Positions 17,901 through 21,854 of a stretch of DNA of 23,276 nucleotides are shown piece by piece (positions within the stretch are counted from its first letter, which is position 1; each line of letters begins with the position of its first letter). The position numbers and the translations under genes are program-made. This DNA comes from Candidatus Aenigmatarchaeota archaeon (GTDB taxonomy: Archaea > Aenigmatarchaeota > Aenigmatarchaeia > CG10238-14 > WAMV01). The notes below the pieces were generated by a model that made no database searches, had not been told where the DNA came from, and worked only from the letters and a program-made list of their open reading frames with translations. Location of the stretch: positions 1-23,276 of the forward strand of contig WAMV01000010.1 of assembly GCA_015522145.1 (NCBI GenBank), written 5' to 3'.

Positions 17901-18494
17901 TTATTTTGCTAAATTTAAATTTTTCCTTACGAAATAACCCCTCAAAATACCATTTTGATCTTTATAATCAAACCTACTCATGTGATTATCTATCAATTTA
18001 TAATGAACTTCTGGAGGTACTTCTTGCAAATATTTTTTATTTATTTTTAATGATTCAGGATAAAGCCCAATGTATAAAGATATTAAATAACATATTTTAC
18101 TAACTCTTTCTACTTCATCCAGATGTTTGTAAGCATTCATCGGTTTCCAATTTATAACATTAAAAGATGAAACACCATCGATAGAACCATCTCTTATTGG
18201 TAAATTGTAAGCTTCTGTTAGCACCACATCACAACTTACATTCCTGTATTTCATAGATTCTTGAGCTATTTTTTTAGCATTTTGCCAATCTAGTTCTGTG
18301 CAAATAAGATAGGTATTTTCTTTAAACAAATCATTAACTACATTACTGAATTTTTCATCACCACTTCCCACATCTAGAAATGTATTAGCATTTAAGTTTT
18401 TAGCTAGTCTAAGAAAAATTCTATATGCTTTTGTCCTCTGACCTTTCAAATACCTTTCTCTTTTCTTTTTATCTTTAACATATTCTAATCTCAT
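17901..18494 (-). CDS. Class I SAM-dependent methyltransferase
   Basis: Motif I FLDVGSG, acidic ELD, LPIRDGSIDGV and LDEVERV. Confidence 0.8.
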   Translation of the reverse strand: MRLEYVKDKKKRERYLKGQRTKAYRIFLRLAKNLNANTFLDVGSGDEKFSNVVNDLFKENTYLICTELDWQNAKKIAQESMKYRNVSCDVVLTEAYNLPIRDGSIDGVSSFNVINWKPMNAYKHLDEVERVSKICYLISLYIGLYPESLKINKKYLQEVPPEVHYKLIDNHMSRFDYKDQNGILRGYFVRKNLNLAK

Positions 18495-19433: not shown

Positions 19434-21854
19434 ATGGAACTAAAAGAAAAGTTAAAGCTAAGGAAATTAATAAAAGAGCTTAAATCATACAAAGGAAGAC
19501 ATACGGAATTAGTTAGTGTATATATTCCTTCTGGCTATAATCTTGTCGACGCAGTTAACATGCTTAGGACAGAAGTTTCTACAGCCCAAAACATCAAATC
19601 CAAAACTACACGCAAGAATGTTGTTGAAGCGTTAGAGAAAATATTGCAGCATCTTAAGCTGTTTCGTGAAACCCCACCAAATGGCTTGGTAGTTTTTGCC
19701 GGCAACGTTTCACAAGAAGAAGGCAAACCAGATGTTAGGGTTTGGTCTATTGAGCCACCAGAGCCATTGAGAACAAAACTTTATTGGTGTGACCAAGTTT
19801 TTGTTACTGAGCCACTAGAAGAAATGTTAGAGGAAAAGGACAATTATGGTTTAATAGTTATGGATGGAAGTGAAGCTATCATAGGCGTGCTAAGCGGTAA
19901 ATCTATAAAGAAACTAAAAAGAATTGAAAGCTTGGCACCTAGCAAATCAGTTAAAGGTGGTATGTGTGTATGCGAAGACACACTTATTCAGCTTTCCGAC
20001 GGAAACATAATACCAATTAAAAACTTAATAAACGGTCAAAAAATCTTGTCCTATTCCCTGAAAGATATGAAACCAACATATGTTGATCATTTTGAGATTT
20101 TCAAAAGAAGGGCTAGAGTTGCGTATAAGCTTATATTTAAGTATCCCAGCTTACAACTAACCTTGACCCCAGAACACATAGTTTTTGTAGTAACAGAAAA
20201 TGGAATAGAAGAAAAAAGTGTGGAAGAACTAAGACCTGGTGATAAATTATTAATGGTTTTTGATATAAAGGTTAAAGGAAAAACTACAAATAAAAGTGGT
20301 AAGTTCTATCAATTGCTGGGCTACATTACAGGAGACGGAACCTTTGATAACAACAGAATAATTTTTTACGATAAAGATAAAGAGCTGCTGGAATTTTATG
20401 CTAAAATAGCTGAAACAACTTTAGGCAAAAAGCCAAAAATTTTGAAAAGGAGAAATGCTTATGAAGCCAGAATTTATAGCAAAGAAATAGCAAGCAAAAT
20501 TTCAAAAAAATATAAGGAAGTTGCTAAACTTAGTAGAGAAAGAGATATATCAGAGGAGATTTTGAAACTTCCTAATTATAAACTGAAGTTTTACTTGAGA
20601 GGCATCTTTGATGCAGAAGGTTATATAGATAAGAAAAGTATAGGTATGAGATTATCTAGTGAAATTTTAGCTAAAAAGCTTCATCTATTATTGCTAAGAT
20701 TTGGAATAGTAAGTAGCTTAAGAGGTCCAGATAAGCTTGGTAGGCTTGAGTTAAGAATAACAAACCCAATCATGATTAAGAGATTCTACCAAAACATTGG
20801 TTTTAGTAGTAAGAAAAAAATGAAAAAACTACATGAATTGCTAAGAAAGCATAAAATGAGCTATTCATTTAAAGCTCCAGTTAACGGATTGTTGGTAAGA
20901 AAAATAATTGAAGAAATGGGCTTAAAGAAGGAGGACATTAAAAAATACAGCATGTTTTTATCCGGTAAGAGAAGCATTTCATATCCAATATTTAAGAAAC
21001 TAGTAAAAGAAGTTGAAAGAAAAGCAAGAAGCAAGAAATACTTATCTTTGCTAAAGAGGATGCTTAATTCAAAACTAATCTCAATTACTTTATACCAGAA
21101 GCTGAAAATAAAAACCAGTAAAAGGTTTTACGATTTGTACATCCCCTCCACAAACAGTTTTATTGCACAAGGTATACTAGTTCATAATTCACAAAGACGT
21201 TATGATAGAATTAGAGAACAGGCTCTGATAGAGTACTATAGAAAAGTTGGGGAAATTGCTTCTAAACTATTTTTGGATTTGCCTAATTTGAAAGGTGTAA
21301 TAATAGGTGGGCCAGGTCCGATTAAAGAAAGATTTTATGAAGGAGATTATCTTGATCATAGAATAAGAGAAAAAGTTTTAGGTGTTAAAAGCGTTGGTTA
21401 CGTTAATGAATATGGGTTAGAGGAATTAGTTAAGAGAAGTGAAGATTTAATCCAAGAAGCTGAAATAATGAAAGAAAGAAAACTACTTCAGCAATTCTTT
21501 GCAAACATTCATAAGAAAGGCGAGAAAATCGTTTATGGTTTGGAAGATACTTTGAAAGCTTTAGAAATTGGTGCTCTAGACACAATAATGATTTCTGAAG
21601 ATTTTGATTATGTTAAGAGAAAAATAAAGAAAAATGGTAAGGAAGAAGTGGTTTATCAAAGAGAGAACGAAAGCTATGAAGGCGAACTAATAGAGGAAAC
21701 AGATTTATTGGAAGAAATAGAAAAGCTAGCTAAACAGTTTGGAACTAAAATCGAGTTCATATCAGACTCTACAAATGAAGGAAGACAATTTAAGAATCTT
21801 GGAGGAATTGGTGGTTTACTAAGGTATAGAATCAAAGACTTACAGGCAAGCTAA
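19434..21854 (+). CDS. prf1: Peptide chain release factor aRF1, intein-containing (398-aa extein)
   Basis: GRHTELVSVYIP, NIKS, YWCDQVF, GPGPIK and GGIGGLLRY; the GGQ position reads GGM. Confidence 0.96.
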   Translation: MELKEKLKLRKLIKELKSYKGRHTELVSVYIPSGYNLVDAVNMLRTEVSTAQNIKSKTTRKNVVEALEKILQHLKLFRETPPNGLVVFAGNVSQEEGKPDVRVWSIEPPEPLRTKLYWCDQVFVTEPLEEMLEEKDNYGLIVMDGSEAIIGVLSGKSIKKLKRIESLAPSKSVKGGMCVCEDTLIQLSDGNIIPIKNLINGQKILSYSLKDMKPTYVDHFEIFKRRARVAYKLIFKYPSLQLTLTPEHIVFVVTENGIEEKSVEELRPGDKLLMVFDIKVKGKTTNKSGKFYQLLGYITGDGTFDNNRIIFYDKDKELLEFYAKIAETTLGKKPKILKRRNAYEARIYSKEIASKISKKYKEVAKLSRERDISEEILKLPNYKLKFYLRGIFDAEGYIDKKSIGMRLSSEILAKKLHLLLLRFGIVSSLRGPDKLGRLELRITNPIMIKRFYQNIGFSSKKKMKKLHELLRKHKMSYSFKAPVNGLLVRKIIEEMGLKKEDIKKYSMFLSGKRSISYPIFKKLVKEVERKARSKKYLSLLKRMLNSKLISITLYQKLKIKTSKRFYDLYIPSTNSFIAQGILVHNSQRRYDRIREQALIEYYRKVGEIASKLFLDLPNLKGVIIGGPGPIKERFYEGDYLDHRIREKVLGVKSVGYVNEYGLEELVKRSEDLIQEAEIMKERKLLQQFFANIHKKGEKIVYGLEDTLKALEIGALDTIMISEDFDYVKRKIKKNGKEEVVYQRENESYEGELIEETDLLEEIEKLAKQFGTKIEFISDSTNEGRQFKNLGGIGGLLRYRIKDLQAS
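19965..21188 (+). mobile_element. Intein (408 aa) with a LAGLIDADG homing endonuclease
   Basis: N-terminal CVCEDT, block B TPEH, endonuclease blocks LLGYITGDG and YLRGIFDAEG, block F FYDL, and C-terminal VHN followed by Ser. Confidence 0.95.

Follow-up and report, generated by a model that had tools for sequence, protein, structure and literature searches.

Can a class I release factor terminate translation without the glutamine of its GGQ motif? The question is raised by the aRF1 gene on a 23,276-nucleotide contig of a Candidatus Aenigmatarchaeota archaeon (WAMV01000010.1; "the window" refers to this whole stretch), in which the catalytic tripeptide reads GGM. Judging from sequence, we consider it likely that the encoded protein is the sole functional class I release factor of its host and that its catalytic loop has been rebuilt, with a hydrophobic residue plugging the place of methyl-glutamine, a second glutamine two residues downstream supplying the amide, and the methyltransferase Mtq2 lost.

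The gene is an open reading frame of 806 amino acids on the forward strand (19434..21854; stop codon at 21852-21854) with one intein inside, and the two stretches that flank the intein match the NCBIfam model aRF1_eRF1 (TIGR03676) at 430.5 bits against a cut-off of 234.7. The Pfam domains eRF1_1 (66.8 bits), eRF1_2 (109.9 bits, split), and eRF1_3 (96.8 bits) all exceed their cut-offs. The N-extein (19434..19964; residues 1 to 177) covers positions 1 to 172 of the aRF1 profile with its residues 5 to 176 and ends in K-G-G-M; the profile stops at residue 176 and resumes at profile position 174 in the C-extein (21189..21851; residues 586 to 806), which begins with Ser+1. The stop codon recognition motif NIKS (19590..19601; AAC ATC AAA TCC; residues 53 to 56) and the YxCxxxF motif, read in translation as YWCDQVF (19782..19802; residues 117 to 123), are both in place. 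Positions 19941-19964 encode S-K-S-V-K-G-G-M (residues 170 to 177), followed by the codons TGT GTA TGC, so GGT GGT ATG (19956..19964) stands where GGQ would be encoded and Met177 is the -1 residue of the intein. Counting the Q/M position of the motif as 0, the second half of the loop, S-Q-R-R-Y (21189..21203), places Gln at +2 and Tyr at +5, and at the predicted junction the spliced loop reads KSVKGGM-SQRRYDRIRE. The preliminary description of this locus had the GGM right but overlooked the downstream glutamine, which, as seen below, covaries strongly with the loss of the first.

The window protein shares with canonical aRF1/eRF1 the same three domains, NIKS, YxCxxxF, the two glycines, Ser+1, the arginine ladder, and the single copy. 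It differs in having Met (Trp in relatives) rather than Gln as the third residue of the motif, in Gln+2 and Tyr+5, in that no Mtq2 was found in its genome, and in the intein within the motif. The GGQ tripeptide by which aRF1/eRF1 is recognized is therefore not there: the glycine pair remains, Met occupies the third place, and +2 holds a Gln. As predicted from its sequence, the protein is an aRF1 ortholog by homology and a variant by the definition of the catalytic motif.

The methionine codon is real and heritable, the product of neither error nor chance. ATG differs from CAG and CAA at two positions, on which grounds a base-call error had already been called unlikely, and this judgment holds. 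Logan contigs of runs X1 and X2 show 0 differences from window positions 19700-20200 at word depths of 10 and 20, reading ATG and never CAG or CAA, although they are not independent of the assembly because both runs may be source samples. Run X3, a hydrothermal vent metagenome from the same study, has a 151-nucleotide contig of depth 2 that matches positions 19935-19965 except for one letter and, past the match, translates as S-Q-R-R-Y-D-R-I-R-E; this is an intein-free allele of a relative, GGM-SQRRYDRIRE, and it bears out the Met as well as the predicted splice junction. The spliced loop proposed in the preliminary description, together with its intact NIKS and YxCxxxF, is correct in every detail. 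Methionine also recurs in dozens of independent assemblies. We read the loop, by pattern and by eye, in 204 genomes comprising relatives from the same order and an even sample of the phylum (a single class), all but a few of them metagenome bins; one genome (G169), whose gene is cut, was left out. GGQ was found in 78 of these genomes, GGW in 70, GGM in 52, GGY in 2, GGF in 1, and GGA in 1. Among the best 120 shorter homologs in the database, 93 have GGM (5 of them cut within the intein), 11 GGF, 10 GGQ, 4 GGW, and 2 GGY, and the closest homologs of the window protein carry the name Candidatus Aenigmatarchaeota at NCBI. The probability that sequencing or assembly error produced the codon is, in our estimate, negligible.

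Between Met177 and Ser+1 lies an intein of 408 amino acids (19965..21188; Cys178 to Asn585) with a LAGLIDADG homing endonuclease domain, an unrelated passenger in the motif that would splice out. Pfam matches are Intein_splicing (53.4 bits), LAGLIDADG_3 (64.8 bits, in two stretches), and Hint (27.1 bits), and the NCBIfam model intein_Nterm begins at residue 178. The hallmarks of a class 1 intein are all found, namely, C178, block B TPEH (20166-20177), the LAGLIDADG motifs LLGYITGDG (20313-20339) and YLRGIFDAEG (20592-20621), the terminal HN585, and S586 as nucleophile. Predicted splicing would give the junction seen in the intein-free X3 allele. Like other inteins in conserved active-site motifs, this one combines Cys1, TxxH, two LAGLIDADG motifs, His-Asn, and Ser+1 and occupies the most conserved motif of its host protein; beside known class 1 LAGLIDADG inteins it has nothing unusual about it.

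The preliminary description had suggested that the intein itself caused the change, through a preference for Met at -1 or through escape from the homing endonuclease, and all 22 intein-bearing alleles seen in the window's order are indeed GGM. However, an intein occupies exactly this site in 38 of the 204 genes, and in other families the identical site has Q (10 genes) or W (6 genes) at -1 beside the 22 with M. Moreover, 30 of the 52 GGM genes have no intein, nor does the GGM allele in run X3. Both versions of the idea are refuted by these observations, and we regard an origin through the intein as exceedingly improbable. The pairing of residues within the loop also crosses the intein, as 12 of 12 completed large-intein genes pair Q with SA or SS downstream and W or M with SQ..RY. 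Separately, mini-inteins (133 to 146 amino acids) and full-length endonuclease-bearing inteins (303 to 511 amino acids) share one common insertion site throughout the phylum.

The replacement of the glutamine is widespread and taxonomically structured. A survey that included intein-free relatives, as had been suggested for this motif, finds a residue other than Gln (non-Q) in 126 of the 204 genomes, and GGM occurs with and without the intein. No GGQ was found in the 89 genomes examined from the window's order (families f1 to f7). A second order (f10, f14, f15, f20, and f31) has GGW apart from four genera of f20; f22 also has GGW, and the other families have GGQ. The state of the third residue is uniform within each genus except g16, in which it is Ala or Trp. 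In a FastTree phylogeny of 178 intein-excised aRF1 sequences, one GGQ clade of 63 (support, 98) is separated from all others, and parsimony requires a minimum of 3 changes between Q and non-Q, or 9 when every state is counted separately. Because Trp flanks the Met clade on both sides in this gene tree, Met appears by parsimony to be derived and Trp to be older. In an IQ-TREE analysis of 62 rows, a single non-Q clade was not rejected (approximately unbiased test, P = 0.26). These are gene trees without an outgroup.

The replaced position bears the mark of purifying selection. Met is kept in 42 aRF1 sequences down to 48% pairwise identity and Trp in 66 down to 37%, so the position is constrained rather than relaxed. 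The whole loop covaries with it, from GGQ-S-[A/S]-x-R-F to GG-[W/M]-S-Q-x-R-Y. Across the 204 genomes, Gln+2 is present in 116 of 126 non-Q genes versus 6 of 78 GGQ genes, Tyr+5 in 115 of 126 versus 12 of 78, and Asn+3 in 8 of 126 versus 0 of 78, counts whose two-by-two tables overstate the support, since related genomes are not independent. The rest of the loop has been held fixed, with K-6, G-2, G-1, S+1, R+4, and R+9 invariant in 165 of 165 full-length exteins aligned. As the two glycines are kept together with K-6, S+1, R+4, and R+9, the rebuilt loop should still reach the peptidyl-transferase center.

Absence of Mtq2 accompanies the loss of the glutamine. We searched 201 genomes of the phylum with TIGR00537 (HemK2/MTQ2); for 191 of them the aRF1 state is known, and a match at or above the cut-off was found in 64 of 78 GGQ genomes versus 1 of 113 non-Q genomes. 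That lone match, in genome G019, clears the cut-off of 87 by half a bit (87.5 bits) and belongs to an atypical protein of 384 amino acids with WNGP in place of NPPY. In the window's own genome, which is 81% complete, Mtq2 was not found, the best TIGR00537 match (E = 1.4e-6) lying far below the cut-off. Within the mostly-GGW order, the matches at or near the cut-off come from the four GGQ genera (genomes G113, G178, G194, G082, and G133) and from G220; the four GGQ genera are those with NPPY-bearing Mtq2-like genes, and the G220 match is an atypical protein of 382 amino acids. The expectation that the partner Trm112 would disappear as well was not borne out: PF03966 is often kept in non-Q families (11 of 12 genomes in f4, 16 of 17 in f14, and 6 of 7 in f15) and was found in 0 of 8 genomes of the GGQ family f12, so we rejected a joint loss. 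Trm112 (PF03966) was not found in the window's own, 81% complete genome. An open reading frame elsewhere in the window (17901-18494, reverse strand; 197 amino acids) contains an S-adenosylmethionine-binding-like LDVGSGDE but has no NCBIfam match at E = 1e-5 and is not Mtq2.

These data bear on the proposal, made in the preliminary description, that Met in particular may mimic N5-methyl-glutamine in genetically encoded form and so make the methyltransferase dispensable. Methionine is linear and not far from methyl-glutamine in length. It is strictly conserved in 52 genomes, and Mtq2 was not found in GGM genomes. The part of the proposal that concerns Mtq2 is supported, but a special status of Met is not, because Trp is commoner (70 genomes) and flanks the Met clade, so that Met goes back to a Trp state; Phe, Tyr, and Ala are further residues seen at the position; and the Trp lineages lack Mtq2 just as much. 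A specific Met mimic therefore seems to us improbable.

Could the protein be a bystander to a second, canonical factor? The window's genome (G000) comprises 322,935 bases in 19 contigs and, at 323 kb with a GC content of 34%, is well below the 0.4 to 1.2 Mb of its relatives. Within it, the only eRF1_2 matches are the two extein halves of the window gene, and an aRF1 profile that we built found only the window open reading frame among the 261 of at least 150 amino acids in the genome. These 261 frames end in TAA (142), TGA (73), or TAG (46), and thus all three stops are in use. Of 61 genomes sampled from the order, 1 has a match to the bacterial release factor domain PF00472. A second GGQ factor as a backup, for which a search had been recommended, was accordingly rejected, with none found by eRF1_2 or the aRF1 profile in the own genome or by PF00472 in 60 of 61 genomes. 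Four extra weak aRF1-like matches in relatives were checked: three are Pelota (TIGR00111 at 265 to 283 bits), and one, in genome G039, is an acVLRF1-like protein whose score of 75.5 bits is below the cut-off and whose loop, GGSSARRF, has no Gln at 0 or +2. This last protein (L371:97-867 on G039:C1) has 257 amino acids and lies about 8 kb downstream of aRF1. The sole PF00472 match (G041:C15:6433-6804; 44 bits; 164-amino-acid open reading frame) could be contamination or an ArfB-like gene.

One might still imagine that the factor only recognizes stop codons and that release is left to other means, for instance splitting of the ribosome and then a peptidyl-tRNA hydrolase. The canonical Gln is after all missing, and Pelota, a member of the same superfamily, works without catalysis. 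Pelota/Dom34 likewise has no GGQ glutamine, but it is encoded by a separate gene in these genomes and has neither NIKS nor a GG loop. Against such a division of labor, all 165 sequences share GG, S+1, R+4, and R+9 without exception and the replaced position is strongly constrained, the loop shows no decay of the Pelota kind, and we detected no other hydrolase of the GGQ type, either in the own genome or, by PF00472, in 60 of 61 genomes. We think this alternative very improbable.

A mechanism that accommodates the rebuilt loop can be outlined from what is known of the canonical one. According to Zeng and Jin (2018; PMC5799190), the backbone angles of the GGQ glycines are open to glycine alone, the Gln side chain serves in packing and helps to retain the water, and N5-methylation brings further van der Waals contacts with U2506, A2451, and A2452. 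In the factor likely to be encoded by the window, a bulky hydrophobic side chain would take the place of N5-methyl-Gln and pack against the wall of the peptidyl-transferase center, with Trp arising first and Met later in the window's lineage. Gln+2 would most likely supply the water-positioning amide, in the manner of the GGxSQ loops reported for VLRF1-like proteins. Mtq2 would be useless without its GGQ substrate and could then have been lost; alternatively, Mtq2 may have been lost first, selecting for a rebuilt loop. The packing role, the role of Gln+2, and this order of events are what the conserved pattern suggests to us.

A compensating change in the ribosome was sought, but not seen, in 23S rRNA taken from 13 non-Q and 13 GGQ genomes. 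In an alignment made noisy by introns and strong divergence only 2 of 283 well-aligned columns of the peptidyl-transferase center region are split by group, a weak negative result given the rough alignment. Together the two columns resemble a single compensating base pair at some distance from the core, and the bases at A2451, U2506, and U2584/2585, located by anchor motifs, are kept in both groups. Apart from this comparison, the region (L374-L400; 27 genomes) is unusually divergent throughout the phylum, with roughly 70% identity to the typical sequence. At the A2503 position the base may be A, C, or U, many genomes reading GAUAAUGG where the usual sequence is GAUAACAGG, and several 23S genes of 4 to 6.7 kb suggest introns.

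Similar loops exist outside this clade. We scanned one genome per prokaryote species with a degenerate DNA pattern for GG[W/M/R/L]-S-Q-x-R-Y-x-R-x-R-[D/E] and obtained at least 120 matches. Among the matches listed, 79 are GGWSQ, 40 are GGMSQ, and 1 is an unrelated GGWTQ, and those listed with titles shown are mostly Aenigmatarchaeota or "uncultured archaeon." Four loci (L243, L253, L255, and L299) belong to Thermoplasmata-like genomes of about 1.8 Mb that have a canonical aRF1 (NIKS, GGQ; 442 to 552 bits) plus a paralog of 304 to 371 amino acids, without NIKS, whose best matches are baeRF_family10 and acVLRF1 and whose loop, GGWSQxRYxRIRE, is letter for letter like that of Aenigmatarchaeota. 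The paralog loci are L352 (G233:C21), L353 (G235:C7:122-955), L354, and L355, and in G235 one contig carries both the paralog and the canonical GGQ aRF1, some 2 kb apart.

Burroughs and Aravind (2019; PMC6514570) describe a GGxSQ motif in aVLRF-1 and acVLRF-1 and, in other VLRF-1 proteins, a GxuQ pattern whose Gln is taken as catalytic; the loops of VLRF-1 are described there as longer. The GGxSQ loop is thus shared by VLRF-1, acVLRF1, and baeRF family 10 with the window aRF1, which reads G-G-M-S-Q after splicing. In contrast, the VLRF1-like paralogs have neither NIKS nor YxCxxxF and stand beside a canonical GGQ aRF1, whereas in the window's genome the loop is in the sole, NIKS-bearing aRF1. 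The window open reading frame scores 26.3 bits with PF18854, below the cut-off of 27.1, and no PF18859 match is listed for it (P0001); as the PF18854 score is below the cut-off and the NIKS domain is present, the window aRF1 is not a member of the VLRF1-like families. The resemblance looks like convergence rather than domain swapping because, apart from W, Q, and Y, the residues flanking the loop match the aRF1 native to this phylum. For the same reason we disfavor gene conversion from a GGWSQ paralog, and the four second aRF1-like proteins checked, three Pelota and one Gln-less, offer no such donor; conversion of a short tract from a GGWSQ paralog may nevertheless have occurred.

A wider comparison used the 150 best representatives of clusters at 50% identity and a tree of 118 rows. 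Six GG[W/F]SQ representatives (P0202, P0168, P0261, P0158, P0171, and P0146) are placed apart from the main non-Q clade, each as a lone sequence with a long branch. NIKS and YxCxxxF are present in P0202, P0168, P0261, and P0171, P0158 has YxCxxxF and no NIKS match, and P0146 was counted by its loop alone; several of the six adjoin GGQ sisters that already have SQ. This tree implies at least 9 changes between Q and non-Q, with Gln+2 in 18 of 21 non-Q rows versus 21 of 97 GGQ rows. We entertain, tentatively and with somewhat less than even confidence, a broader reading in which two loops are interchangeable, GGQ with a methylated tip glutamine or GG-phi-S-Q with a hydrophobic residue plugging the tip and the working Gln two positions later, the latter being the loop of VLRF1-like rescue factors. 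In canonical aRF1, GGQ would have given way to GG-phi-S-Q at least once, in the ancestor of a large Aenigmatarchaeota clade, with several more switches probable elsewhere; after each of them, Gln N5-methylation and Mtq2 would have been dispensable.

Several observations weigh against a rebuilt, glutamine-assisted loop. Catalytic activity of a non-Q aRF1 is something we infer from sequence, and loss of the glutamine is not generally tolerated, as yeast with Q182E eRF1 could not be propagated (PMC12440015). In 8 independent pairs, Gln+2 goes the same way as the loss of the first Gln 5.1 times and the other way 0.3 times, but the test is underpowered (median P = 0.06; range, 0.03 to 0.6). GGQ genera that lie taxonomically within the mostly-GGW family f20 imply several switches, a reversal, or transfer. 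The length of the loop in the window's clade is unchanged, unlike the longer loops of VLRF-1, and the reach of position +2 to the reaction center is conjectural. Nor is the association with Mtq2 perfect: 14 of 78 GGQ genomes (completeness, 83 to 95%) also have no Mtq2 above the cut-off, 4 of them having weaker HemK-like matches and 10 no match of note (completeness, 83 to 91%), and 8 non-Q genomes have subthreshold HemK-like genes. The weaker HemK-like genes have NPPY in GGQ genomes G082 and G133; among non-Q genomes, G212 and G151 have NPPF, G037 has DPPF, and G063, G210, and G089 have no such motif. Finally, 10 of 126 non-Q aRF1 genes have no Gln+2 (GGW-SAN, GGW-SAS, GGW-SSN, and GGM-SAR), and Gln+2 therefore cannot be strictly essential.

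These ten natural forms keep alive the simpler explanation that the Gln side chain is dispensable, so that the backbone of the third residue and the glycines catalyze, W, M, F, or Y fills the pocket of methyl-Gln, and Gln+2 and Tyr+5 hitchhike or stabilize the loop. Only hydrophobic or aromatic residues and one Ala occur at the site, in keeping with the packing role assigned to the side chain in PMC5799190. What this explanation leaves unaccounted for is the appearance of Gln+2 with Gln loss in 116 of 126 genomes and in all 6 of the scattered W/F representatives, as well as Asn+3 (SAN or SSN) in 8 of the 10 exceptions, the remaining two being SAS and SAR, versus 0 of 78 GGQ genes. We judge it unlikely, although it carries more weight than any other alternative to a loop in which Gln+2 takes part.

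Our search of the full-text literature found no natural aRF1 or eRF1 without the GGQ glutamine and no GGW, GGM, GGWSQ, or GGMSQ in release factors; the only report of GGxSQ that it found was that of PMC6514570 for the VLRF-1 families. Textbooks show GGQ throughout, and Mtq2 has been described as present in all archaea (PMC6144793 and PMC5799190); neither statement holds for at least 126 genomes in 65 genera. Laboratory substitutions of the Gln in RF1, RF2, and eRF1 and loss of methylation by PrmC or Mtq2 address the same question, the role of the side chain and of its methyl group, but such variants are engineered and mostly deleterious, whereas the non-Q state of this clade is natural and conserved across lineages. 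Natural, conserved replacement of the glutamine together with loss of the methyltransferase thus amounts to a ready-made experiment on what the side chain does and why it is methylated, and the covariation within the loop points to W/M, Gln+2, and Tyr+5 as positions that can be tested. Annotation and motif-based screens would call these non-Q factors inactive.

Outside the loop, aRF1 also varies among relatives. NIKS is replaced by NVKD (G048, G060, and G039), NVKS (f4 and others), NVKN (f18), or NIKSD (genus g5), the loci of these variants being L003, L005, and L044, L009-L021, and L096-L100. Short aRF1 forms of about 360 to 375 amino acids (G007, G030, G033, G019, and others) match profile positions 3 to 316 and 358 to 402 and have no counterpart of about 40 positions of the C-terminal domain. 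Two further aRF1-like proteins in the wider comparison (P0249 and P0265) have GGE and no NIKS, and one of them is named aRF-1 by NCBI in a bacterial record ([Eubacterium] cellulosolvens).

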